Positions 2,207 through 30,200 of a DNA stretch of 32,075 nucleotides are shown in pieces. Origin of the DNA: Pseudomonadota bacterium (GTDB taxonomy: Bacteria > Pseudomonadota > Alphaproteobacteria > UBA9219 > RGZA01); contig JACQAB010000066.1 in the NCBI GenBank assembly GCA_016195205.1, forward strand, positions 1 through 32,075, read 5' to 3'. Position 1 is the stretch's first letter; the number at the start of each line of letters is the position of its first letter. Under the pieces are notes generated by a model that was not told where the DNA came from, did no database searches, and worked only from the letters and a program-made list of their open reading frames with translations. Both the position numbers and the translations under genes were made by a program.

Positions 2207-2632
2207 CTACTGAGCTGGTGGCTTTTTTAAGCCGCCGTGCTCGCGAATCATGCCTGAGATGACCTGTTCGCATTCCGTAGGTTCGTGCCGCGTTCCGTCT
2301 GACGTCTTTCCAACCGGCGGAGCCTTTCTTACTGGCCACGACACCCCTGTGTCGCAATAGGCCAGCCGCACTTTGGCCATGGCATCGGTTTCTTTTTTCT
2401 GGCAGGCCTCGATATCCTTCATCGTGGTCGCTTGCTGAATGCAGGACACCACCTCCTGAAGCCGGTCAAGCCGTTCCTGCCGGCTTTGCAGTGCCAACTC
2501 CCGCGCCGTCTCAAAATCCTCGGGGCGGTTGTAAATTTTCACGTCTTTAAACGGGTTGTTTCCTTCGGCATGAAGCGGCGCGCCGGCCAGCATGGCGAGG
2601 GATAAAAAGGCAAAAGCGAGCGACTTTTTCAT
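2207..2632 (-). CDS. Small secreted 4-Cys protein, tandem paralog 1 (unknown function)
   Basis: 141 aa with SD AGGAGAGG upstream of the ATG and signal peptide MKKSLAFAFLSLAMLAGAPLHA. It is clearly homologous to the next ORF (APLHAEGNxPFKDxKxY...LAYCDTGVSW...PTEC). Confidence 0.7.
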   Translation of the reverse strand: MKKSLAFAFLSLAMLAGAPLHAEGNNPFKDVKIYNRPEDFETARELALQSRQERLDRLQEVVSCIQQATTMKDIEACQKKETDAMAKVRLAYCDTGVSWPVRKAPPVGKTSDGTRHEPTECEQVISGMIREHGGLKKPPAQ

Positions 2633-2653
2633 CGGAAACCTCTCCTAACACTT

Positions 2654-3097
2654 CTACTCGGTGGCGCCCTGTGTTTGGCCATCCCCTAAGCCACTCCGTC
2701 TCTTTTTGATATTTTCAATGGCCTGCAGGGCCTTCTGGCATTCGGTGGGCGGCTTCTTCTTTCCATTCTTTTTGCTGCCCTTACGTGCGTCGAGGTACAG
2801 CCACGACACCCCCGTATCACAATAAGCCAGCCGGATTTTGGCCGTATAATCGGCCTCGGTTTCCTGGCAGGCATAAATATCGTCCATCGCTTTCGCCTGC
2901 CGGATGCACGTCATCACATCCTTGATCCGGTCCATCCGTTCCACGCGATTTTGGAGCGCCAGCTGTTTCGCGACCTCGAAATCCTTGGGGTGGCCATACA
3001 TTTTTATGTCTTTGAATGGATCATTCCCTTCGGCATGAAGCGGCGCAGCCGCAAGCACGGCGAGAAATAAAAAGGCGGAAAGGATCCAGTTTCTCAT
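2654..3097 (-). CDS. Small secreted 4-Cys protein, tandem paralog 2 (unknown function)
   Basis: 147 aa with a GAGGG SD and signal peptide MRNWILSAFLFLAVLAAAPLHA. It aligns with 2207-2632 over about 100 aa, with four conserved Cys. Confidence 0.7.
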   Translation of the reverse strand: MRNWILSAFLFLAVLAAAPLHAEGNDPFKDIKMYGHPKDFEVAKQLALQNRVERMDRIKDVMTCIRQAKAMDDIYACQETEADYTAKIRLAYCDTGVSWLYLDARKGSKKNGKKKPPTECQKALQAIENIKKRRSGLGDGQTQGATE

Positions 3098-7922: not shown

Positions 7923-7967
7923 TGGTGGACAATACAGGGCTCGAACCTGTGACCCGCTGATTAAGAG
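7923..7967 (-). repeat. Orphan 3' half of tRNA-Lys (CCA end to anticodon loop); att-like direct repeat
   Basis: tggtggacaatacagggctcgaacctgtgacccgctgattaagag matches 15448-15492 at 44 of 45 positions (hand alignment). The adjacent sequence cannot supply a D-arm or the 5' acceptor strand, so this is not a functional tRNA. Confidence 0.85.
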
Positions 7968-15447: not shown

Positions 15448-15523
<76 letters not shown>

Positions 15524-15687: not shown

Positions 15688-16617
15688 ATGAACCAGCTGC
15701 GTCTTAAACCGACCCCGCAAAGTCTGCCCACGCCCGCGCAGAAACAGCGTGCCGCGTGTTGGTTCACGGAATTACAGGGGCAATTCTGCGTGGCGCTGGA
15801 AGAGATCGAGCAGGAATATGCCACACAAAAAGGTGGAGCGGTACAAAAATTCCAACGCAAGGATTGGATCCGTGAAACCCACGATAACGTGCCCGGCGGT
15901 GGCGGCAACATGGCCCTGCTCAAAGGCCAGGTATTCGAAAAGGCCGGCGTGAATGCGTCGGAAGTGTTCGGGCAATTTTCAAAAGAGTTTCGCGCACAAA
16001 TCCCGGGTGCCGATGGCGCAGTCGCGGTTGCGCGAAGCGCAGAGCAGTCGCGCCAAGAATATGAAGACGGCGCGTTCTGGGCCGCCGGAATCAGCCTGGT
16101 GGTGCATCCGCGCAACCCGAAAATTCCCGCAGTGCATATGAACACGCGGCACATCGCCACGCGTTTTGGCTGGTTCGGCGGCGTGGCTGATCTGAATCCG
16201 GTTTTCCCCGATGCGCAGGATGTTGAAGCCTTCCACGCCGCGCTGGGGCGCGTTTGCGGCACCGACACCCCCGCCTGGAAAAAGGAATGCGATGAATATT
16301 TCACCATCAAACACCGCAAAAAGCCGCGCGGCGCGGGCGGGGTGTTTTTTGACGATCTGAACCGCGGCGACTGGGAGGCTGATTTCGCTTTGGTCCAGGC
16401 CCTGGGCGAGGCGGTGCTAAAGGCCTATCCGGCCATCGCGCGGCGGCATTTGTTTGAAAGTTACACGCCGGAAGAACGCGAGGCGCAACTGGTGTGGCGC
16501 GGGCATTATGCCGAGTTCAACCTGGTCTATGACCGCGGCACCAAATTCGGGCTGATGACCGGCGGCAATGTCGACGCCGTGCTCATGTCCCTGCCGCCCG
16601 AGGCCAAGTGGCTTTAG
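15688..16617 (+). CDS. hemF: Oxygen-dependent coproporphyrinogen III oxidase
   Basis: 309 aa with GGGGNMALLKGQVFEKAGVN, ISLVVHPRNPKIPAVHMNTRH, RGAGGVFFDDL and YAEFNLVYDRGTKFGL, all typical HemF motifs. It carries an extra segment of about 16 aa (see the repeat at 16016-16054). Confidence 0.95.
   Translation: MNQLRLKPTPQSLPTPAQKQRAACWFTELQGQFCVALEEIEQEYATQKGGAVQKFQRKDWIRETHDNVPGGGGNMALLKGQVFEKAGVNASEVFGQFSKEFRAQIPGADGAVAVARSAEQSRQEYEDGAFWAAGISLVVHPRNPKIPAVHMNTRHIATRFGWFGGVADLNPVFPDAQDVEAFHAALGRVCGTDTPAWKKECDEYFTIKHRKKPRGAGGVFFDDLNRGDWEADFALVQALGEAVLKAYPAIARRHLFESYTPEEREAQLVWRGHYAEFNLVYDRGTKFGLMTGGNVDAVLMSLPPEAKWL
16016..16054 (+). repeat. 39-nt GC-rich element copy inside hemF, in-frame
   Basis: gcgcagtcgcggttgcgcgaagcgcagagcagtcgcgcc matches the reverse complement of 24255-24293 at 38/39 and 21478-21516 at 36/39 (hand alignment). 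It encodes AVAVARSAEQSR in the loop between the conserved IPGA and FWAAGISL. Confidence 0.8.
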
Positions 16618-18097: not shown

Positions 18098-18106
18098 GGG
18101 AGTAAT

Positions 18107-18160
18107 GAGTAGTGAGTAATGAGGAGTGAATCAATACTCACTCCTCATTACTCACTACTC
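18107..18160. repeat. Perfect 23-bp-stem hairpin in the aguA-aguB spacer
   Basis: gagtagtgagtaatgaggagtga / atcaatac / tcactcctcattactcactactc. The arms are exact reverse complements and are internally repetitive (GAGTAATGAG twice). The aguA stop codon (complement of 18155-18157) lies inside the right arm. Confidence 0.85.
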
Positions 18161-19213
18161 GGGCTCCTGCTGCGTGATGCAATGAAACGAGCCGCCGCCG
18201 CTTAAAATCGCATGCGAGGGCAAACCCACCACCTCGCGCCCCGGGAACAGGGGCTTCAGCGCCGACACCGCCTCCTTGCCGCGCGCGTTATACACCGGCA
18301 CCACCACGGTTTTATTGCCGATGATGAAATTCATATGGCTGGCGGCCTGCAGTTCCGGCACCTCGCTGTCGATCCGACCCGGCGAGGGAATGGTGATCAC
18401 CTCCAGATTCATGCCGCGCAGCGCGGTTTCAATTTCTTTCAAGACTGCGGCGTTCGGGTCATCCGCGCCGCTGGCGTGCTGGCAGACCACTTTGCCGGGG
18501 GCGACAAAGCGCGCCAGGTTGTCGATATGCCCGTCGGTGTGGTCGGCGGGCAAGCCGCGCTCGAGCCACAGGATTTTCTCGAAGCCCAGCGCGGTTTTCA
18601 GCGCTTCAGTGGCAGCAGTTTCCGTCCAGCCCTTGTTGCGGTTGGGATTCAGCAGGCATTGGCGGGTGGTGAGGCACAGGCCGTTGCCGTCAAATTCCAG
18701 CGAACCGCCTTCAAGAATGAAATCATGCTTTTGCGTTGGAATATTTGCGGCAGCGGCGATTTTTTCATTCACGCTTTCATCGCCCGGGTAAATAAATTTC
18801 CCGCCCCAGCCGTTGAATTTGAATAGATGCGCAATGGGGGCTGAGGGGCTAGGGGGCTGGGGGGCTGGCAAATCCAATTTTCCCCGAGCCCCCAAGCCCC
18901 CGAGTCCCCGAGTCCCGAATATTGGCCCTGTATCGCGCAGCCAGGTATCGCCATAGGGAATTTCAAAAATTTCGGCGATACCCTTCAATCTTTCCTTGGC
19001 GCTTTGCAGCCCGCCGCCGCAGGCCAGCACTTTTACGTGATCGCCGCCTGACAAGGCGCGGATCATGGCTTCCACCTCGTCCTGCGCCCCTGAAAGCGCC
19101 TCGAACCACGCCTCAGGGTCCCACGGCCAGGCCGTCCAGATGGCCTTATGCGGGGCCCATTCAGCGGGGATGGACGCAGGCGAAGACGGGTTCTGTTTCA
19201 GCGCGGGTTGCAT
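18155..19213 (-). CDS. aguA: Agmatine deiminase
   Basis: 352 aa with WLRDTGPIF, FNGWGGK, HTDGHIDN and the C-terminal GGGSFHCITQQEP catalytic Cys motif. It carries an in-frame repeat insertion (18836-18916). Confidence 0.9.
   Translation of the reverse strand: MQPALKQNPSSPASIPAEWAPHKAIWTAWPWDPEAWFEALSGAQDEVEAMIRALSGGDHVKVLACGGGLQSAKERLKGIAEIFEIPYGDTWLRDTGPIFGTRGLGGLGARGKLDLPAPQPPSPSAPIAHLFKFNGWGGKFIYPGDESVNEKIAAAANIPTQKHDFILEGGSLEFDGNGLCLTTRQCLLNPNRNKGWTETAATEALKTALGFEKILWLERGLPADHTDGHIDNLARFVAPGKVVCQHASGADDPNAAVLKEIETALRGMNLEVITIPSPGRIDSEVPELQAASHMNFIIGNKTVVVPVYNARGKEAVSALKPLFPGREVVGLPSHAILSGGGSFHCITQQEPE
18836..18916. repeat. G-tract/C-tract palindromic element inserted in-frame in aguA
   Basis: gggggctgaggggctagggggctggggggctgg-caaatccaattttc-cccgagcccccaagcccccgagtccccgagtccc is 81 nt (27 codons). 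It encodes GTRGLGGLGARGKLDLPAPQPPSPSAP between the conserved RDTGPIF and FNGWGGK. Confidence 0.8.
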
Positions 19214-19733: not shown

Positions 19734-19818
19734 GTCATGCCCGCGTAGGCGGGTATCCACGAAAGCCACAGGCTACGGCTTCTGGCCTATCGTGGACCCC
19801 CGCCTACGCGGGGGTGAC
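19734..19818. repeat. Palindromic REP/MITE-like element of about 85 bp
   Basis: gtcatgCCCGCGTAGGCGGGtatCCACGA...TCGTGGacccCCGCCTACGCGGGggtgac. The arms are about 23 nt and nearly perfect. It is intergenic, between the hypothetical gene and the decarboxylase. Confidence 0.7.
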
Positions 19819-19857: not shown

Positions 19858-21273
19858 TTAGAATCCCACCAAGCTTGGCGCGGATTTGCCGTCGCCGTCG
19901 AAGGTGGGCTCGCTTTCCTGCCAGAAGCCCGGCGTGGAAAGCAGCGGGGCGTCGCGCACTTCGACCGGATGGGCCGAGGCGCCGAAGCCGTTGAAGCTGG
20001 ACTGCAGCGCGGCGCTGTAGCCGCCGGTCTGGCCGATTTCGATCCAGTCGCCTTCTTCCACGTCGGCGGGCAGGCTGACGGGCACCTTCAGCGCGTCGAT
20101 GCTGTCGCAGGTTGGGCCCAGCAGGGTGAACTTGGCCATTTTGCTTGAGGGCGTGGGCGCGTCGGGGCGGATCAGGCGCACCGGATAGGTGAGGCGGCTG
20201 ATGCTGGCGTCGAACAAGCCGCCGTATAAACCGTCATTGATGTAAAGCCGGTTTTCCTTGCGCAGATCCACCTTCACCACCAGCGAGCCCGATTCCTGCA
20301 CCAAAGCGCGGCCCGGTTCGCACCACAGCTTGGTTTTCTTGGGCAGCTTCAGGGCTTCGGCGCCCAGGGTGATGGCCTGCATGTAGGAGGCCAGCGAAGG
20401 CGGGGTCAGCCCCGTGAAGCTTACGGGGAAGCCGCCGCCGACATCGACGATGTCGGGGTTGACTCGTGCCAATTGGATCACCTCGCCCACCTGGGCCAGG
20501 GCGGTGGCATAGGCCTCGGGGTTCATCGTTTGCTGGCCCACATGGAAGGCAATGCCGAAGCGCGCGGCCACCTTGCGCGCTTGCGACAGCAATTCCGCCG
20601 CCAGGGGGTTGGCCGCGCCGAATTTGCCCGCGAGGGAATGAAACGCGTGCCCGCCCGAAACCGCCAGGCGCACGATGATGCCCAGGTCTTTGGCGCCGCG
20701 GGTTTCTTCCAGCAGCTTGAACAGCTCCGCCGGACTATCAATCACGAAGTCGCGCACGCCGTAGTGGAAATAGCTTTTGCGGATGGCCTCGCGGCTTTTG
20801 ACCGGATGCATGAAGTGCATCCGCGCCTTGGGGCAAAGCCCGGCCACCAGTTCCACCTCGGCCAGGCTCGCCACGTCAAAGTGGCGCAGGCCCGAGGCCC
20901 AAAGCTGGCGGATCACCAGCGGCGTGGGGTTGGCCTTCACCGCATACATGACGGTGCCGGGGAAATGGCTGAGGAACCATTGGACCGCTGAGTGGATCAC
21001 ATGGCGGCGCACCAGATGGGTGGGTTTTTCGGGGCGGGCCTCGGCCACATAGGCCTGGGTGGCTTCGTAAGACAGGCCGGTACTGCTGCCCAACGGCAGC
21101 GGACGGGAAAGCGCCCTGGCAGCCAAAGCGGCGCGGCGGCTGCCCGAAGGCGCGGAAACGCCCGGCTCAGGCCCGGAGGGCATGAGGTTTTCAGAAGATG
21201 AATCGTAGAAGCGGCTGGACCCTTCCGGTCCAGGAGGCTCTGATTCGTAAACAGGCAGGGATTTGTCGCCCAT
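19858..21273 (-). CDS. Group IV (alanine-racemase-fold) PLP-dependent ornithine/arginine/lysine decarboxylase
   Basis: PLP-lysine motif VMYAVKANP, GGGFPV and the C-terminal LLGPTCDSID motif. SD AGGAGA lies 6 nt upstream of the ATG at 21273; the track start at 21291 is a TTG. There is a long low-complexity N-terminal extension. Confidence 0.85.
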   Translation of the reverse strand: MGDKSLPVYESEPPGPEGSSRFYDSSSENLMPSGPEPGVSAPSGSRRAALAARALSRPLPLGSSTGLSYEATQAYVAEARPEKPTHLVRRHVIHSAVQWFLSHFPGTVMYAVKANPTPLVIRQLWASGLRHFDVASLAEVELVAGLCPKARMHFMHPVKSREAIRKSYFHYGVRDFVIDSPAELFKLLEETRGAKDLGIIVRLAVSGGHAFHSLAGKFGAANPLAAELLSQARKVAARFGIAFHVGQQTMNPEAYATALAQVGEVIQLARVNPDIVDVGGGFPVSFTGLTPPSLASYMQAITLGAEALKLPKKTKLWCEPGRALVQESGSLVVKVDLRKENRLYINDGLYGGLFDASISRLTYPVRLIRPDAPTPSSKMAKFTLLGPTCDSIDALKVPVSLPADVEEGDWIEIGQTGGYSAALQSSFNGFGASAHPVEVRDAPLLSTPGFWQESEPTFDGDGKSAPSLVGF

Positions 21274-21477
21274 CTGGTGTCTCCTCATCAATCGGTACCG
21301 GACTTAAGGCATCCGGCCGCCAACCAACTAAAAGAGACGCGTCGCCACATAAACGCCAGAGGGCCAGGGGTACGTGCGCGTTCGAAGTTATTAAATAAGC
21401 TCCATTCATGAAAATTCAATAAAAATTTTGGGTGGAGAGACATTTTTTTGTGAATCCACCCGGGTGTGTCCCCATGG

Positions 21478-21516
21478 GCGCAGTCGCGGTTATGCGAAGC
21501 GCAGAGCAGCCGCGCC
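21478..21516 (+). repeat. Intergenic copy of the 39-nt GC-rich element
   Basis: gcgcagtcgcggttatgcgaagcgcagagcagccgcgcc matches the hemF copy at 36/39. Confidence 0.75.
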
Positions 21517-21661: not shown

Positions 21662-21765
21662 TTCCCCTCCCCTTGCCCTCCTTCGCTAAAGCTAAGGAGG
21701 GTCTGGGCGAACCCGTCCGCCGAAGCTTTGGCGGAGGCGGAAGGGAGGAGCTAGGGGAGAGGGGT
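21662..21765. repeat. Composite palindromic element; its parts recur inside pheT
   Basis: The outer arms begin tcccctccccttgccctccttcgc, identical over 24 nt to 24723-24746. The interior 21677-21737 is the reverse complement of 24520-24580 with few mismatches, including a near-identical stretch of about 50 nt. Confidence 0.7.
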
Positions 21766-22383: not shown

Positions 22384-22609
22384 GTGGCCCCGCGCCAAGT
22401 TTCGGGGGGCTTGTTAGCTTGCCGAACTTTTCGATTTTCAGGATATTAACGAATGCGGCGTTGAAATCGTTAAAATTTACGGAGGCGTTTCATGTCGCAG
22501 TGCACGGAAACTTTTCTTGTTAACCATAAGAATTCGCTTGTGAGAACTGCAAAACTTGTTCTAGGGTTTTTTTCACTTTATCAATCCCTTTATCTTTTAG
22601 GAGAACAAC

Positions 22610-22843: not shown

Positions 22844-23423
22844 ATTTCAATTCCCGATGTCGCTCCTGCCGCTGATGCGCGGCGGAGTGATGTTCCCCTG
22901 ATAAGTTTTCCGACTCGGCTTTTGATTAGCCTTTGTTCGCACGCCGAGTCGTGCCTGGGGGTCTAAGGGCCTGAATCGGTGGCTTTTTACCACCCCCTGA
23001 TAAACCCTGAATTGTTTCATTTCCGGACTGGACGAGCTTGTGGATAAAGTGTAATTTTTGCCGCAGTGCACGCAAAGTTTCTTTGTCGATCACAGGAATA
23101 TTCTTGTTTGTGCAGGAAAATTTGATCTAGGATTCCGCCACATTATATTTCCCCGTGACCGGGAGAAGGCCGTGTATTTAGGATTTCCGAAAAGAACTGT
23201 TGTCGGTGGCGGCGTCTTTGACGATGTTACCAGCTTTCGCTCCCGGCCCAGGCCAAACGAGGCCCCCATGGATACAAGCCTTGAACCAGCCAGGGTGAGT
23301 CGCGCGATGTCCGGGGCCGCCACCATCTCGGGCATGAGGTCCGGCGAAATAAATGGGCCTGCCTCCGTCACTTTCCATGCTCCGCGCCCTTCTCTCTTTC
23401 CCTCTCCCTTCATCCGCTAAAAT

Positions 23424-26138
23424 TTATTTTCTTAAAACCGCTCCCGCCGCCCTGTGCGCCGCGGCGATGATTTTTTCCGACAGCGCTTCCAGCTCCGCTT
23501 CCGTTAGCGTCTTCTCACGCGGCTGAAAACGCACTTCCAGCGCCAGCGATTTCTGCCCCGGCGCGACATTCGCGCCCTCGTACACGTCAAATACCTCCAC
23601 CCCGGCGATCAGCTGGCGTTCCACGGCGCGGATGGCCTTGACCAGCTTTTCAGCCTCCACCCCCCTGTCCAGCACGAAGGCGAAGTCGCGCCGCACTGGC
23701 TGCAGGTCGGGCAGCTCGAGCAGCGGCCTGGCCGGGCCGGTTTCTTTTAGCGGCGGCAGGGCCTCGAAAAACACCTCAAACCCGGCGGTGGCCGTTTTCA
23801 CTTCCAGCTTCTTCAGGATCGCCGGATGGAGTTCTCCGAAATGAGCCAGCACCGTGGCGCCCAGCTTGAGCACGCCCGAACGGCCGGGGTGATACCAGGC
23901 GGGCGCCTCGGCCACCGCCTGAAGGCCGCCCAGCGGAACCCCCACCGCTTCCAGCGCCGCCAGCGCGTCGGCCTTGGCGTCGAACAGGTCTACCGCGCGC
24001 GGCTCCACCGCCCAGTGGCGCGGCACGGCGAGGCCTGTGCGTAAGCCCGAGGCAGCCATGATCTGCCCCTCGGGCGCGGCGGAGCGGTAGATCGAGCCTA
24101 CCTCGAACAGGGCGGTGTCGGCAAAGCCGCGATCGGCGTTGCGCCGTGCGGCCATCAGCAGGTTGGGAAGAATACTGCCGCGCATGGCGTCCAGCTCGGC
24201 GCTGATGGGGTTCTGCAGAAGAATAGGTTGCGGCTCGCTCTGCGCTCTTATCTCGGCGCGACTACTCTGCGCTTCGCGCAACCGCGACTGCGCTGGCAAC
24301 CGCTCGCTCGCTAAAAAAAGCTTGGCAATAACGGACGGCATGAACGACCAGGTAACCACCTCCAGCAGCCCCCGGGCTGCCAGGGCCTTGCGCGCCGACT
24401 CGCGGCGGCGTTGTTGCAAATTCCATCCAAAAGAAACACCGTCATCCCAGCGCATGCTGGGATCCATGGCCACCGCCTTTCTGCCGGATAGGTTTCTGCC
24501 ATGGATGCCAGCCTTTCCGCCTTCGCTAAAGCTTCGGCGGACGGGCTCGCCCAGACCCTCCGTAGCTTTAGCGAAGGAGGGCGCTGGCATGACATTGCTA
24601 GATGGCAAAGACAGTGCCGGAATTTGATCAAATCCCCTCAGGCGTAAAATCTCTTCCACGCAGTCGGCCTCGCCCTCCAGGTCGGGGCGGGAGGAGGGAA
24701 ATGTTACCTCGAACCCTTCTTCTCCCCTCCCCTTGCCCTCCTTCGCCAAGGCTACGGAGGGCAGGGGGAGGGGAAATCCGGTCTTGCGTTTCACTTCACA
24801 GCCAACGGCTTCCAGTAATTTCTTTTGTTCGTCAGGAGGCACATCCAGCCCGCCGAAACTTTTGCAGCGCGTGGCGCGCAGGAACACGGTGCGGCTTGTA
24901 TCGGGCAGAACGCCGGCCACGATCACCTCGCTGGCCTCGCCGCCACAGGCTTCAAGGATAAGCTGGGTGGCCCACTCGGTCATTTCCACCATGATGGCGG
25001 GGTCGACGCCGCGCTCAAACCGCGTGCGGGCGTCGCTGATGATCTGCAATTTGCGCCCGGCGCGCGCAGTGCGCACGGGATCGAAAGTGGCGCATTCCAA
25101 AAACACTTCGGTGGTCATCTCGGTGCAGCCGGTCTCCATACCGCCCATGATGCCGGCGATGGCCAGGGCTTTTTCATCGTCGGCGATGATGGTGATGCTT
25201 TCATCCAGCACATATTCCTTGCCGTTCAGGGCCAGGAGCTTCTCCCCCGCACGGGCGGGGCGGGCATGCACATCGCCCTTCACCTTGGCGGCGTCGAACA
25301 CATGCAGCGGGCGGGCGGCATCAAATGTCAGATAGTTGGTAATATCGACTAGCGCCGAGATGGGCCGCAGGCCAATCGCTTTCAGCTTGCGCTGCAGGGC
25401 CTCAACCGATGGGCCATTTTTCAAGCCACGAAGGGTGCGGCCAATGAAGTAAGGGCAGGCGTTTTTGTCGGCGGGGCCGAAATCCAGTTTGATGCCGCGC
25501 GGGCTTTTGAATTTGCCTTTCACCGGCTGGGTTTTGCGCGGTTTCAGCCTGCCCAGGCCCGAAGCTGCCAGATCGCGCGCGATGCCGTAAACGCCGAAGC
25601 AATCGGGGCGGTTGGGGGTGAGCTTCACCTCGAACACCGCGTCATCCAGCTCCTGGGTGTCGACGAAAGATTTTCCCACCGGCGCGTCGGCGGGGAGTTC
25701 GATAATCCCTTCATGCTCTTCGCTGAGCAGCAGCTCTTTGGCCGAGCACAGCATGCCGCGCGATTCCACCTCACGGATTTTCGAGATTTTCAGCACCGTG
25801 CCGCTGGCCGGGATCACCGTGCCGGGCGCGGCGAACACGCCCTTCATGCCCGCACGGGCATTGGGGGCGCCACATACCACCTGAACTTTTTCGCGCCCTG
25901 TGTCGACGATGCACAGCTTCAGCCGGTCGGCATTGGGATGTTTCTCGGTGCTTTCCACATAGGCCACGATGAACGGCGCCAACGCCGCCACCGGGCTGGA
26001 AAGGCTTTCCACCTCCAGGCCCAGCCAGGTGAGCTTTTCGGCGATTTCCTTGGCGGAAGCCGTGGTTTCGAGGTGTTCCTTAAGCCAGGAGAGGGTGAAT
26101 TTCATGGAGTCCCGTTTTAACCTTATAGCCCGTTGCAC
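23424..26138 (-). CDS. pheT: Phenylalanine--tRNA ligase beta subunit
   Basis: 904 aa. N-terminal tRNA-binding domain (MKFTLSWLKEHL...HPNADRLKLCIVD), B3/4 and B5 regions, NPISAELDAMRGSILPNLL and a C-terminal anticodon-binding-like domain. It is roughly 100 aa longer than the beta subunits I remember, which is accounted for by three repeat insertions. Confidence 0.95.
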   Translation of the reverse strand: MQRAIRLKRDSMKFTLSWLKEHLETTASAKEIAEKLTWLGLEVESLSSPVAALAPFIVAYVESTEKHPNADRLKLCIVDTGREKVQVVCGAPNARAGMKGVFAAPGTVIPASGTVLKISKIREVESRGMLCSAKELLLSEEHEGIIELPADAPVGKSFVDTQELDDAVFEVKLTPNRPDCFGVYGIARDLAASGLGRLKPRKTQPVKGKFKSPRGIKLDFGPADKNACPYFIGRTLRGLKNGPSVEALQRKLKAIGLRPISALVDITNYLTFDAARPLHVFDAAKVKGDVHARPARAGEKLLALNGKEYVLDESITIIADDEKALAIAGIMGGMETGCTEMTTEVFLECATFDPVRTARAGRKLQIISDARTRFERGVDPAIMVEMTEWATQLILEACGGEASEVIVAGVLPDTSRTVFLRATRCKSFGGLDVPPDEQKKLLEAVGCEVKRKTGFPLPLPSVALAKEGKGRGEEGFEVTFPSSRPDLEGEADCVEEILRLRGFDQIPALSLPSSNVMPAPSFAKATEGLGEPVRRSFSEGGKAGIHGRNLSGRKAVAMDPSMRWDDGVSFGWNLQQRRRESARKALAARGLLEVVTWSFMPSVIAKLFLASERLPAQSRLREAQSSRAEIRAQSEPQPILLQNPISAELDAMRGSILPNLLMAARRNADRGFADTALFEVGSIYRSAAPEGQIMAASGLRTGLAVPRHWAVEPRAVDLFDAKADALAALEAVGVPLGGLQAVAEAPAWYHPGRSGVLKLGATVLAHFGELHPAILKKLEVKTATAGFEVFFEALPPLKETGPARPLLELPDLQPVRRDFAFVLDRGVEAEKLVKAIRAVERQLIAGVEVFDVYEGANVAPGQKSLALEVRFQPREKTLTEAELEALSEKIIAAAHRAAGAVLRK
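24255..24293 (-). repeat. 39-nt GC-rich element inside pheT, in-frame, in a different frame from hemF
   Basis: The reverse complement matches hemF 16016-16054 at 38/39. It encodes AQSRLREAQSSRA within ...FLASERLPAQSRLREAQSSRAEIRAQSEPQPILLQNPIS. Confidence 0.8.
24441..24580. repeat. Block of two palindromic elements inside pheT, in-frame
   Basis: gtcatcccagcgcatgctgggatccatgg (24441-24469) plus ccttcgctaaagcttcggcgg...ccgtagctttagcgaaggagg (24520-24580). Together they encode about APSFAKATEGLGEPVRRSFSEGGKAGIHGRNLSGRKAVAMDPSMRWDDG. Confidence 0.75.
24723..24774. repeat. 52-nt palindromic element inside pheT, in-frame
   Basis: tcccctccccttgccctcc-ttcgccaaggctac-ggagggcagggggagggga encodes about FPLPLPSVALAKEGKGRGE. 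Confidence 0.75.
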
Positions 26139-27232: not shown

Positions 27233-28492
27233 CTAGGTAATCACCACCGCGCGGAAATCATTCACATTGGTGCGCGTTGGGCCGGTGACGATGAGATCGC
27301 CCAGCTTCTCGAAAAATCCATAGGCGTCATTATTGGCCAGGTGATCGGCGGGCTTCAGCCCGGCCGTTTTGGCGCGCGCCAGCGTATCGGCCAGGAAAAT
27401 CGCCCCGGCGTTATCCTCGCTGCCGTCAATGCCGTCGGTGTCGCAGGCGATGCCGGAAATCCTTGCATGGCCCTGCGCGGCTATCGCCAAAGCCAGCAGG
27501 AATTCGGCGTTGCGCCCGCCGCGCCCGCTGCCCTTCAGCGTCACCGTGGTTTCCCCGCCCGACAGCAGCACGCAAGGCGCGAGTGCAGGTTGGCCATGCT
27601 CGGCCACTTGAAAGGCAATTCCCGCCATGGCCTTGGCCACTTCGCGCGCCTCGCCCTCAATCCGGTGGCCCAGGATGACCGGTGTTATCCCGTGCTGCCG
27701 CGCATAAGCCGCCGCGGCTTCCAACGCATCCTGCGGCCTTGCAATCAGGATATTTTCGGCACGCGCCAGGCAGGCATCGCCGGGCTTCACGCTTTCGCTT
27801 GCGGCTTTTTCCAGATGCGCGCTTACCGCCTTCGGCACGCTCAAAGCGTATTTGCGGATGACCGCCTTGGCGTTTTCCAGCGTGGTCGGATCAGCCACCG
27901 TGGGGCCCGAGCCCACCACCGCCGGGTCATCCCCCGGCACGTCGGAAATAATCAGCGTGACGATTTTCGCCTTGCCCGCCGCGCGCGCCAGCCGTCCTCC
28001 GGAGATGGCCGACAGGTGCTTGCGCACGCAATTCATCTCGTCAATCGGCGCGCCGCAGGACAACAAGCTCTTATTCACCGCGCGCAGGTCGTTCATGCTC
28101 AACCCCTCCGCCGGGCAGCTGAGCAGCGCCGAAGCCCCGCCCGACATCAGGCATAAAAGCAAATCCTCCGCGCCCAGCCCGCCCGCCAGTTTCAGCATGC
28201 GCCGCGCGGCCTTCTCGCCATTGTCGTCGGGCATGGGGTGACCCGATTGCATGACCTCGATCTTCTGCGTGGGCAATTCGTGCTTATAACGGGTGACGAC
28301 AAGGCCGCCGATCTTGCCACGCCAATGCGCCTCGGTGGTTTTAGCCATGGCGGCCGCGGCCTTGCCCGCGCCCAGCACCAGGGTACGGCCTTTCGGCGCT
28401 TGCGGCAGATGCGGCGGCAGCGTTTTTTCCGCGCTGACGGATGACAGCGCGGCATGGAAGATGCCGGTGAGAAAGGAGCGTGGTTCGGTCAT
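27233..28492 (-). CDS. Glycerate kinase, DUF4147/MOFRL family (often annotated as hydroxypyruvate reductase)
   Basis: 419 aa with VLGAGKAAAAMA, LLSGGETTVTLKGSGRGGRNAEFLLALA and ACDTDGIDG, the motifs characteristic of this family. Confidence 0.9.
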   Translation of the reverse strand: MTEPRSFLTGIFHAALSSVSAEKTLPPHLPQAPKGRTLVLGAGKAAAAMAKTTEAHWRGKIGGLVVTRYKHELPTQKIEVMQSGHPMPDDNGEKAARRMLKLAGGLGAEDLLLCLMSGGASALLSCPAEGLSMNDLRAVNKSLLSCGAPIDEMNCVRKHLSAISGGRLARAAGKAKIVTLIISDVPGDDPAVVGSGPTVADPTTLENAKAVIRKYALSVPKAVSAHLEKAASESVKPGDACLARAENILIARPQDALEAAAAYARQHGITPVILGHRIEGEAREVAKAMAGIAFQVAEHGQPALAPCVLLSGGETTVTLKGSGRGGRNAEFLLALAIAAQGHARISGIACDTDGIDGSEDNAGAIFLADTLARAKTAGLKPADHLANNDAYGFFEKLGDLIVTGPTRTNVNDFRAVVIT

Positions 28493-28499
28493 GAAACAA

Positions 28500-28570
28500 G
28501 TGATTGGTTTTTAGTGATTAGTTTTTAGTGGAATAACATCACTAACCACCAATCACTAAAAACTAATCAC
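28500..28570. repeat. Hairpin with a 31-bp imperfect stem filling the pheS-glycerate kinase spacer
   Basis: gtgattggtttttagtgattagtttttagtg / gaataacat / cactaaccaccaatcactaaaaactaatcac pairs at 27 of 31 positions (hand count). The arms are tandem GTGATTRGTTTTTA words. The last pheS codons and the stop lie in the right arm. Confidence 0.8.
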
Positions 28571-29657
28571 CCAACACTGAAAACCCATAATGCCGCAGCC
28601 AGCGCAAATCGGCCTCGAAGAAGGTTCTTAAATCGGGAATGCCGTATTTCAGCATCGCCAGGCGCTCGACGCCCATGCCGAAGGCGAAACCCTGGTATTT
28701 GGCAGGGTCGATGTTGCAATTGTTCAGCACCTTGCCATGCACCATGCCGCAGCCCAGCACCTCCAGCCAGTCGTCGCCCTCGCCGATTTTTATTTTGCCG
28801 CCGGGGCGTGAGCAGCCGATATCAACCTCGGCCGAAGGCTCGGTGAACGGGAAGTAAGACGGGCGGAAACGCACCTTCAAATCGGGCACGCCGAAAAAAC
28901 CGCGCAGGAAATCCATCAGCACGCCCTTCAGATGGCCCATATGGGTAGTCTCGTCGATCACCAAGCCTTCCACCTGATGGAACATGGGAGCGTGGGTCTG
29001 GTCGAAATCGCGGCGGAACACGCGTCCCGGCGCCAGGATGCGGATCGGCGGCTTGCTTTGCAGCATGGTGCGCACTTGGACGGGAGAAGTGTGAGTGCGA
29101 AGAACCATGGGGGCTTGGGGGCTTGGGGACTCGGGGTTCGAGCTTTCCAACCCCCCAGCCCCCGAGTCCCCCAGCCCCAGATAAAACGTATCCTGCATCT
29201 GGCGCGCCGGATGGTCAGGCGGCATGTTCAAGGCCGCAAAGTTATAAAAATCGCTCTCGATGTCGGGGCCTTCGGCAACGCTGAAACCCAGCGGCGACAG
29301 CAGCGCCACGATATCGGCGATGGTGCGGGAAATGGGGTGGATCGCGCCCTTGTCTTCCGGGCGCACACTTAAAGTGACATCGGCTTTTTCCGACATCAGC
29401 CGCGCATCCAGCGCCGCCGTGCCCAGCTTGGCCTTGCGCGCCTCGATCAAATTTTCCAGCTCGGACTTCAGCACGTTGATGCGCGCGCCGAAATCCTTGC
29501 GCTCGGTTTCCGGCAGGGTGCCCAGCGTTTTCAGAAGCTCGGTGACGCGGCCCTTTTTGCCCAGGGCCGACACGCGCGCCTCTTCCAGCGCGGCGATGTC
29601 ATTCGCGGCCTCGACGGCCTGCTGGACTTCGGATTTAAGGGTGGAGAGGTCCGTCAT
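28563..29657 (-). CDS. pheS: Phenylalanine--tRNA ligase alpha subunit
   Basis: 364 aa with ALGKKGRVTELLKTLG, HPARQMQDTFY, LRTHTSPVQVRTM, FHQVEGLV, FRPSYFPFTEPS and GFAFGMGVERLAML. It carries an in-frame repeat between DTFY and LRTHTSPVQ. Confidence 0.95.
   Translation of the reverse strand: MTDLSTLKSEVQQAVEAANDIAALEEARVSALGKKGRVTELLKTLGTLPETERKDFGARINVLKSELENLIEARKAKLGTAALDARLMSEKADVTLSVRPEDKGAIHPISRTIADIVALLSPLGFSVAEGPDIESDFYNFAALNMPPDHPARQMQDTFYLGLGDSGAGGLESSNPESPSPQAPMVLRTHTSPVQVRTMLQSKPPIRILAPGRVFRRDFDQTHAPMFHQVEGLVIDETTHMGHLKGVLMDFLRGFFGVPDLKVRFRPSYFPFTEPSAEVDIGCSRPGGKIKIGEGDDWLEVLGCGMVHGKVLNNCNIDPAKYQGFAFGMGVERLAMLKYGIPDLRTFFEADLRWLRHYGFSVLGD
29109..29178. repeat. G-tract/C-tract palindromic element inserted in-frame in pheS
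   Basis: gggggcttgggggcttggggactcgggg-ttcgagctttccaa-ccccccagcccccgagtcccccagcccc encodes GLGDSGAGGLESSNPESPSPQAP. It belongs to the same family, orientation and reading frame as the aguA copy. Confidence 0.8.
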
Positions 29658-29660
29658 GGC

Positions 29661-29728
29661 GGGACTGGGGACTGGGGACTGGGAACTTGAGAAACTTTAC
29701 TAGTCCCCAGTCCCTGATCCCTAGTCCC
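29661..29728. repeat. Inverted arrays of the heptamer GGGACTG in the rplT-pheS spacer
   Basis: gggactggggactggggactggg-aacttgagaaactttac-tagtccccagtccctgatccctagtccc. It ends 4 nt upstream of the pheS ATG, and a T-run follows on the + strand only. Confidence 0.8.
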
Positions 29729-29732
29729 TTTT

Positions 29733-30107
29733 TTAGGCGGCTTTCTTTTGGCTTTTCAGCGCTTCGCCGGCTTTCTGGGCGAGAGCGGCGAAGTTCTGCG
29801 GCTCGGCGATGGCGATTTCGGCCAGCATCTTGCGGTTCAGCGTCACCCCGGCCAGCTTCAGCCCGTTCATGAGGCGGGCATAGGTCAACCCGTGCTGGCG
29901 CGCACCGGCGTTGATGCGCACGATCCACAGCTTGCGGAACTCGCGCTTGCGGTTGCGGCGGTCACGGTAGGCATAGCGCAGGGCCTTTTCGACCTTCTCG
30001 ATGGCGATGCGGAAGCAGGTGCTGGCGCGGCCGCGATAGCTTTTGCCCAGCTTGACCATTTTGCGGTGACGGGCGTGGGTGGTGACGCCGCGTTTTACTC
30101 TGGCCAT
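29733..30107 (-). CDS. rplT: 50S ribosomal protein L20
   Basis: [29 protein letters not shown]...[25 protein letters not shown] is canonical L20. SD AAGGAGA upstream. Confidence 0.95.
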
Positions 30108-30126
30108 GGTTTTCTCCTTGAAATTA

Positions 30127-30200
30127 GGGGCTGAGGGGCTGGGGGACTCGGGGGGATTAAACTTTTTCTCAACCCCTTAGCCCCTGAGTCCCTTAGCCCC
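30127..30200. repeat. G-tract/C-tract palindromic element in the rpmI-rplT spacer
   Basis: ggggctgaggggctgggggactcgggggg-attaaactttttctcaa-ccccttagcccctgagtcccttagcccc uses the same word family as the copies inside aguA and pheS. Confidence 0.8.

Follow-up and report, generated by a model that had tools for sequence, protein, structure and literature searches.

An in-frame palindrome within aguA

The 32,075-nucleotide contig JACQAB010000066.1 of an uncultured alphaproteobacterium (hereafter the window, by which we mean this whole stretch) carries an 81-nt palindrome at 18836-18916 inside a gene for an agmatine deiminase, aguA, and raises the question of how such a hairpin comes to lie within the reading frame of a conserved enzyme. 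We consider it likely that the segment is a copy of a dispersed, lineage-specific palindrome family, carried as a tolerated, selfish or neutral passenger and not as a functional domain. By analogy, these in-frame palindromes are best read as behaving like the Rickettsia palindromic elements (RPEs), with a build like that of the convergent arrays of G-rich heptamers in Xanthomonas. This reading builds on the observed anatomy of the element, its multicopy family, its in-frame status, its rarity among orthologues, and the nesting, filled and empty sites, and replacement seen in the window and its relatives. The element and its host gene are as follows.

18836-18916, no strand assigned: family A hairpin in aguA; minus-strand translation, 27 codons
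18155-19213, minus strand: aguA-like agmatine deiminase open reading frame (ORF), 352 aa, host of the element; frame intact, invariant family residues all present

On the plus strand the element reads GGGGGCTGAGGGGCTAGGGGGCTGGGGGGCTGG / CAAATCCAATTTT / CCCCGAGCCCCCAAGCCCCCGAGTCCCCGAGTCCC. Tandem Repeats Finder resolves it into a G-rich arm (18836-18868, 4.1 units of GGGGGCTG) and a C-rich arm (18881-18916, 4.5 units of TCCCCGAG) composed of complementary octamers, with an AT-rich spacer of 13-14 nt between them (entered at 18869-18880), and so confirms the G-rich arm, AT-rich loop, and C-rich arm given in a preliminary description of this DNA. With at most two mismatches allowed, the window has 13 occurrences of GGGGCTNNGGGGCTNNGGG where 0.2 would be expected, and all 13 fall within three elements. 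Folded as RNA of the mRNA strand, the aguA element reaches -56.2 kcal/mol (z = -3.2; 1 of 200 shuffles equal), and folded as DNA it has z = -3.9. A (G3+N1-7)x4 motif is matched, at the level of sequence, on both of its strands, and 8 of the 12 G-quadruplex motifs in the window fall within tandem-unit hairpins. Sense and antisense transcripts of the hairpins fold equally well, with no bias in energies or in counts of G-U pairs; selection for a strand-specific RNA was rejected on these grounds, and we regard the elements as DNA-level palindromes and not as strand-specific RNA structures. At the Rfam gathering threshold only tRNA-Lys was matched in the window, so that the hairpins correspond to no described RNA family.

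The element translates to GTRGLGGLGARGKLDLPAPQPPSPSAP, between RDTGPIF and (IAHLFK)FNGWGGK, and the site and translation reported earlier stand in the ORF at 18155-19213; the length of 27 codons holds as well, though it is set by the boundaries chosen for the element. The aguA copy is free of stop codons in two of the three sense frames. Candidate tryptic peptides of the aguA insert and of a second insert in pheS (see below), taken from the sequence, are GLGGLGAR and LDLPAPQPPSPSAPIAHLFK.

The host enzyme and its loop

The aguA product matches PF04371 above cutoff (E = 1e-98). It scores 229.7 against TIGR03380, under the equivalog cutoff of 381.8 and aligned in two stretches, so the AguA match is one at family level only. 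The gene is flanked by an Orn/DAP/Arg-decarboxylase-like gene and by a gene for N-carbamoylputrescine amidase, and the latter, the adjoining aguB, scores above its equivalog cutoff (TIGR03381). The nearest non-self AguA homologue among 5.8 billion proteins is only 61% identical. The stretch from RDTGPIF to FNGWGGK spans 10-16 aa in 115 of the 120 best homologues and 25-35 aa in the other five (the window protein, P0002, P0010, P0012, and P0109), with 34 aa in the window protein itself; the excess of 19 to 24 aa bears out the earlier estimate of a loop roughly 19 aa longer, and the extra residues are gapped against PDB entries 1xkn and 6nib.

In an AlphaFold2 model built from a 23-sequence alignment (mean pLDDT 84.7), blocks within residues 101-120 average 45-53 and residues 105-120 fall below 50. 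This low-confidence segment lies between strands 98-101 and 126-132 of a model that resembles the solved agmatine deiminases 2jer, 6nib, and 1xkn (Foldseek TM 0.8-0.85). As modeled, then, the element is at a loop of AguA, in keeping with the proposal that it is tolerated in a surface loop. The columns of Cys345, His225, and Asp94 are kept, as are all invariant columns of the 23-sequence alignment, and the catalytic-Cys motif FHCITQQ is intact; the orthologue alignment and structure mapping suggested in the preliminary description therefore agree on a loop insert with every invariant residue retained. The element is thus a real in-frame insertion of ~19-24 aa, one that occupies a beta-hairpin tip, and the enzyme that carries it is apparently functional.

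Tandem-unit hairpins across the window

The window contains six tandem-unit hairpins of like build, three of GGGGCT type and three of heptamer or 14-mer units. The element family postulated from the aguA copy is thus real, and has a second in-frame member in pheS. The further hairpins, and the second host gene, are:

29108-29178, no strand assigned: family A hairpin in frame in pheS; TGGGGGCT x3.6 / CCAGCCCC x4.0
28563-29657, minus strand: pheS ORF, 364 aa, host of the second family A copy; TIGR00468 above cutoff
30126-30200, no strand assigned: family A hairpin at the rpmI-rplT junction; AGGGGCTG / CCCCTGAG
29661-29729, no strand assigned: heptamer hairpin filling the rplT-pheS junction; GGGACTG x3.9 / CTAGTCC x4.3
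18100-18160, no strand assigned: heptamer hairpin filling the aguA-aguB junction; GAGTAAT/GAGTAGT versus TCACTAC
28499-28584, no strand assigned: 14-mer hairpin over the last pheS codons and stop; AGTGATTAGTTTTT / ATCACTAAAAACCA

The aguA and pheS copies are wholly intragenic, unlike the other four, which lie at gene junctions near or over the stop codon of the upstream gene. Two of these four overlap a stop: 28499-28584, and 18100-18160, whose 23-nt arms are 100% complementary and which covers the aguA stop codon. The intergenic copies sit at stop/start junctions of co-directional genes. In PheS the loop between DTFY and RTHTSP has 27 aa in the window, compared with 11-12 aa in 77 of the 120 homologues listed. 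The reading frame differs between the aguA and pheS copies, as does the peptide that they encode; the pheS copy is free of stops in all six frames, whereas the intergenic hairpins have stops (TGA or TAG) in more frames than either intragenic copy.

The G-rich arm comes first in all six window hairpins and in 26 of 27 orientable hairpins overall (binomial p = 4e-7), the count covering orientable tandem-unit hairpins of period 7-9 over all loci in hand; the single C-first hairpin is in a viral contig (L214). The median number of units per arm is 4.0/4.4 over 28 hairpins. We note also that the rplT-pheS hairpin ends 3 nt before the pheS ATG, with no Shine-Dalgarno-like sequence at the usual position (29655-29735). 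Initiation at pheS would therefore have to cope with this hairpin of -45 kcal/mol, which fills the whole spacer, or be regulated by it.

Other palindromic families in pheT, hemF, and intergenic regions

Palindromes of other build are also found in frame, and four housekeeping genes of the window (aguA, pheS, pheT, and hemF) together hold six or more palindromic insertions in frame. The features concerned are:

23424-26138, minus strand: pheT ORF, 904 aa, with three in-frame inserts; 794-802 aa in five relatives
24717-24776, minus strand: family C palindrome in frame in pheT, 20 aa, FPLPLPSVALAKEGKGRGEE; absent from 5 relatives
24414-24563, minus strand: composite palindromic pheT insert, 50 aa, in frame; absent from 5 relatives
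24228-24314, minus strand: nested in-frame pheT insert, element D with a family B copy in its center
16015-16062, plus strand: family B element GGCGCAGTCGCGGTTGCGCGAAGCGCAGAGCAGTCGCGCC in frame in hemF, 16 aa, GAVAVARSAEQSRQEY
21477-21516, plus strand: intergenic family B copy upstream of the decarboxylase gene
21662-21745, plus strand: intergenic composite of family C; complementary to the pheT copy at 93% over 71 nt

The excess of 94 aa in PheT corresponds to three window-only inserts of 20, 50, and 24 aa. The 20-aa insert at 24717-24776 folds strongly (dG -46, z -8), and the composite at 24414-24563 consists of family C stem-loops together with GGATCCCAGCATGCGCTGGGATGAC (z -3.2). Element D is 39 nt long, with termini GCGAGCGAGCGGTTG ... 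CAGAGCGAGCCGCAA, and in the window pheT a family B copy (24256-24293) occupies its middle; the un-nested element D is the in-frame pheS insert of a relative (L228), with termini identical to those of the window pheT copy. A further palindrome at 19734-19818, GTCATGCCCGCGTAGGCGGGTATCCAC ... GTGGACCCCCGCCTACGCGGGGGTGAC, with 32-nt arms that are 84% complementary, lies between a 139-aa ORF and the decarboxylase gene, and the GGATCCCAGCATGCGCTGGGATGAC motif of the 50-aa pheT insert (24440-24470) resembles it.

Occupancy and replacement in relatives

The DNA of the homologues shows that AguA relatives with a long loop carry, at the same site, hairpins of other units or decayed remnants. Distant orthologues sharing the segment without the palindrome, a pattern that the preliminary description had named as counting against its view, were not found among them; each long-loop relative has its own hairpin or what is left of one. 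The aguA loop holds GGTTTCGA x4 / CGCAACCC x3 in L002 and TTCGAGGT x5 / CCCCGCAA x4.4 in L003, and decayed hairpins in L001 and L004. The pheS loop is occupied in many members of a clade at 69-77% identity, again with varied units: GGGACTCG / AGCCCCCC in L226, CTCAGCCC in L003, GGGTATG in L001, and GGTTKCGM in L225. A decayed copy is also present in L228.

Two comparisons bear on how the sites came to be filled. In Logan run SRR22388241, the aguA copy of L002 and the pheS copy of L225 are one element, its spacer ATRAAAAAAATT included, and as both come from one sequencing run they probably belong to one organism. The sisters L003 and L225 (PheS 87.7% identical in amino acids) carry different elements at the same pheS site, so an element must have been replaced or converted there. 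Filled and empty pheS sites are also seen within two close pairs (88-90% nucleotide identity), which differ by in-frame palindromes of 45 and 51 nt. The nearest relative by PheS, L227 (80.7%), has no insert in aguA or pheS and no hairpin in 21 kb. When the loop is masked, neighbor-joining trees of AguA and of PheS intersperse filled with empty sites; a single ancestral insertion was rejected on this basis, though these trees lack the strength for a tally of gains and losses.

Outside these relatives the hairpins are sparse. A search of genome contigs with AguA gave 80 loci of other AguA-bearing genomes, the best at 59% identity, which served as a negative control; none of them has the insert, and tandem-unit hairpins were found at 2 of the 80, compared with 5 in the window alone. 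The nearest matches to the host PheS are in uncultured Alphaproteobacteria, with Rhodospirillales, Dongiaceae, and Arenibaculum at ~65% identity. As a census probe for metagenome and viral contigs, GGGGCTNNGGGGCTNNGGGGCT alone was unspecific and was set aside: 120 of its 144 matches have no C-rich partner array, and only three (L139, L143, and L201) have at least two partner units downstream. Among its 20 matches in viral contigs none is a GGGGCT-type hairpin, and there is no sign of phage association; the detector made one call of period 7-9 there (L214) and doubtful calls of period 6 (L212, L213, and L222).

Several relatives show further peculiarities. In the rplT-pheS spacer of L226 (9887-9999) one hairpin is nested in the loop of another, with outer arms of AGGGGCT / CTAGCCCC and inner arms of GTAGTGA / TCACTAC, the inner unit being identical to that of the window aguA-aguB hairpin. 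In pheS of L003 (466-500) the C-rich arm is perfect, with 4.4 units of CTCAGCCC, and the G-rich arm is decayed; the two arms have been homogenized or have decayed unequally. Downstream of aguA in L002 (3747-3821) is a hairpin of AGGGTTT / CCCTAAA units, identical, probably by chance, to the telomere repeat of plant type.

Origin of the insertions

How might a palindrome reach such a position and stay there? In each arm about four G-tract units of 7-8 nt follow one another in tandem, and the G-rich arm stands first. If the elements are tolerated passengers, as we think likely, one such copy came to lie at the tip of the AguA beta-hairpin, in a stop-free frame and at a length divisible by three. 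Given that frame and length, it would be transcribed and translated as a loop predicted to be disordered, Gly-rich and then Pro/Ser-rich, and the deiminase fold and catalytic residues would be left untouched. What we see would then be the survivors, selection passing only those copies that fall in permissive loops, in frame and without stops. A filter of this kind is supported by the pheS copy, with 0 stops in six frames, when set beside the intergenic copies, which have stops in more frames. We infer that the elements spread by copy-and-paste, through transposition in trans, or else by ectopic conversion between copies, and that their arms change in length through slippage. The insert is presumably translated and the enzyme still active.

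Several points weigh against this account. The case for mobility is circumstantial, as neither a transposase nor a terminal signature nor a target-site duplication was found; the preliminary description had called the family active, which agrees with the nested copies, the filled and empty sites, and the replacement, but the movement itself is deduced. Within the window, the three GGGGCT copies have spacers unrelated to one another, and the arms are simple tandem repeats that could have expanded locally. In relatives, hairpins built from other units occupy precisely these aguA and pheS loops, which fits random insertion followed by selection only if permissive sites are very few. As L227 has neither insert nor hairpin, the history needs several gains or several clean losses.

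The simple tandem structure of both arms, with its variable number of units, suggests an origin on the spot: a G-rich seed would expand by slipped-strand replication and then be copied by fold-back or template switching, with the aguA and pheS loops as hot spots where this recurs independently from lineage to lineage. We regard this as possible but on the unlikely side. It would account for the different units at orthologous sites of relatives, for the differing length of the pheS loop among very close relatives, and for the lack of target-site duplications; in L001-L003 the units (GGTTCGRG) overlap the conserved Phe-Gly codons TTCGGN at the left boundary, and fold-back copying of a 3' end rich in G should yield the G-first polarity seen (26/27, p = 4e-7). 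However, it sits poorly with near-identical copies, spacer included, in two genes of the same sequencing run and probably of one organism, and with a single unit type at three loci of the window. Nor can local expansion yield the non-tandem families B, C, and D, which are nested and have exact termini common to different genes and genomes. Another idea is that in this clade a few permissive loops of AguA, PheS, PheT, and HemF are persistently occupied and periodically overwritten by whichever hairpin is current, through writing directed by structure or site and not by random transposition under a selective filter; insertion targeted to existing hairpins or G-quadruplexes (G4s), or templated addition of G-rich sequence with fold-back synthesis, would be examples. 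Strict G-first polarity, about four units per arm, and occupancy of the same loops would together point to such a mechanism, which we think unlikely; if true, repeats would be propagating in a new way, one by which protein loops are remodeled.

The recurrence of the same two filled loops in several diverged lineages also invites a functional explanation, in which the hairpin or a G-quadruplex acts as a regulator in RNA or DNA, for instance as an RNase III or other processing site, as a pause in transcription or translation, or in setting relative expression within an operon, or in which a Gly/Pro loop serves the enzyme. Intergenic copies lie exactly at stop/start junctions, as do the Xanthomonas repeats (PMC4692102), about four units per arm is the G4 minimum, and the structure is very stable. 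Nevertheless, the insert is missing from 115 of the 120 homologues and from the nearest relative, and unit, spacer, and peptide are all unconserved between lineages. Copies are decaying in L001, L004, and L228, equal folding of sense and antisense gives no signal specific to an RNA strand, there is no Rfam match to the hairpins, and the insert is predicted to be disordered. A selected function, in any of these forms, is in our view quite improbable. Still less credible is a palindrome made by short-read assemblers: palindromes and low-complexity repeats are error prone in such assemblies, and the window is a metagenomic contig, but the same architecture appears at the same sites in independent NCBI, ENA, JGI, and Logan assemblies, and the frame of essential genes such as pheS and pheT is always kept, as random artifacts would not do.

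Other features of the window

A tRNA-Lys(CTT) gene at 15448-15523 (minus strand) has a 45-nt copy of its 3' part, 98% identical, 7.5 kb away at 7923-7967, and the pair looks like the att-type boundaries of an integrated island. The putative island contains DoxX, an ECF sigma/NrsF pair, MbnB/DUF692-DUF2063, and a DsbD/thioredoxin-like protein; among the ORFs scanned no integrase was seen. The pheS and pheT genes are separated by a DUF4147/MOFRL (glycerate kinase-like) gene and other ORFs (27233-28492). As pheS also adjoins the glycerate kinase gene in L003 and in L227-L231, the split is a feature of the clade and not a rearrangement of the contig.

Adjacent minus-strand ORFs at 2207-3097 (141 and 147 aa) are tandem paralogues, with 73% nucleotide identity over 298 nt, and neither was assigned to a family. 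Between a 185-aa ORF and pheT is a direct repeat of 76 nt (22493-22568 and 23059-23134, 71% identity) that holds motifs like TTGTTAACC / TTGTCGATC. The decarboxylase-like ORF at 19858-21291 has 477 aa from a TTG start, compared with 440-467 aa in relatives, and scores well under all NCBIfam equivalog cutoffs (lysA-like, 129 versus 298); it sits in the polyamine gene cluster, with arginine, ornithine, and carboxynorspermidine as candidate substrates.

Comparison with known systems

The behavior of the elements recalls that of the RPEs. In the account given in PMC10969869 (after Ogata et al. 2000 Science 290:347), RPEs are multicopy alphaproteobacterial palindromes of several families, many of them in frame in unrelated housekeeping genes. 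Within the same account they are translated as extra peptides compatible with the fold, occur in intergenic copies too, and have no transposase known to be associated with them; they are also described there as ~100-150 bp long, with a conserved peptide for each family, and as confined to Rickettsia. Invasion of housekeeping genes in this way has been regarded as peculiar to Rickettsia. This 2024 review calls the frequency of in-frame palindromes in Rickettsia 'unusually high' (PMC10969869). The window hairpin is likewise stable (RNA -56.2 kcal/mol, z -3.2; DNA z -3.9) and belongs to a dispersed family, of which 32 kb holds three copies of GGGGCT type, one between genes and two within them; its 27 codons have no stop, encode a low-pLDDT loop between strands, and form an insert missing from 115 of 120 orthologues. 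However, family A elements in the window are 71-81 nt long, with arms of tandem 8-nt G-tract units, and the aguA and pheS copies give different peptides where an RPE family encodes a conserved one. They reside in a free-standing, uncultured lineage with a PheS ~65% identical to sequences of the Rhodospirillales type. As the elements differ from RPEs, compared here by description, in length and in the lack of a conserved peptide, we do not file them as RPEs; the analogy drawn in the preliminary description holds for in-frame, fold-compatible behavior, but not for anatomy, which is nearest to the Xanthomonas pairs.

In Xanthomonas (GGGAATC) and Nostoc (GGGGA(C/T)T), G-tract units of 7 nt are repeated in tandem, most often four times (Rehm et al. 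2015, PMC4692102). In Xanthomonas there are 70-75 convergent pairs with the G-rich array first, capable of forming stem-loops, and the repeats lie mostly within ~50 bp of, or overlapping, the stop of the upstream gene and match a G-quadruplex motif (PMC4692102). They are 89-93% intergenic and under-represented in coding regions, and translation of whole inverted pairs in conserved enzymes is not described in that study (PMC4692102). The window arms, with 4.1/4.5 units and G tracts, share this build, seven-nucleotide versions lie nearby (29661-29729), and the arrays are convergent and G-first in six of six hairpins. They differ in the octamer unit, GGGGCTNN, and in having several unrelated unit types in one genome. 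The closest known anatomy is therefore that of the convergent G-rich heptamer pairs of Xanthomonas, not that of RPEs. Vioque is said to have reported in 1997 that short tandemly repeated repetitive (STRR) heptamers occupy a permissive position in a cyanobacterial RNase P RNA gene, with function kept. The likeness, by description only, is that short tandem heptamers invade a functional gene; the difference is that this is an RNA gene, and in cyanobacteria.

Other short, dispersed repeats also form hairpins. [quoted passage not shown] REPs are 20-40 bp long, with GTAG or CGTC tags and a cognate RAYT, and in MITEs terminal inverted repeats and target-site duplications go with a parent insertion sequence (IS) (PMC3733652, PMC3116915, PMC10969869). 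The window elements are too long for the 20-40 bp of REPs, and none of the REP/REPIN hallmarks was found in the window. There is no transposase-like Pfam match in the 27 window ORFs scanned, and no consistent direct duplication at the flanks of the aguA, pheS, rpmI-rplT, and rplT-pheS copies or of the filled/empty pairs. With no IS in the window, no target-site duplication, and arms that are internally tandem-repetitive, the elements differ from MITEs as well. The TAACTGA repeats of Beggiatoaceae (PMC4679880) were weighed as a parallel and dismissed, since they lie upstream of start codons as direct repeats and only one case is indirect.

Read as we propose, the window adds to these systems an RPE-like in-frame invasion by G-first tandem-unit hairpins, together with other palindromes, in a non-rickettsial alphaproteobacterial clade. 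The phenomenon would then be broader than thought, with at least six events in four genes within 32 kb of a distant uncultured lineage, drawn from several repeat families, with nesting and with recent gain or loss among close relatives. It would also provide an independent second system in which to ask how selfish DNA is tolerated by proteins, and possibly recruited, as new surface loops. Such inserts inflate and fragment profile matches, as for AguA (below cutoff, in two stretches), and can mislead the annotation and alignment of metagenome-assembled genomes. For models of origin, G-first polarity and about four units per arm are two hard constraints, and the elements would link RPE-like behavior to the tandem G-rich 7-8-mers of Xanthomonas and cyanobacteria, which are poorly understood.

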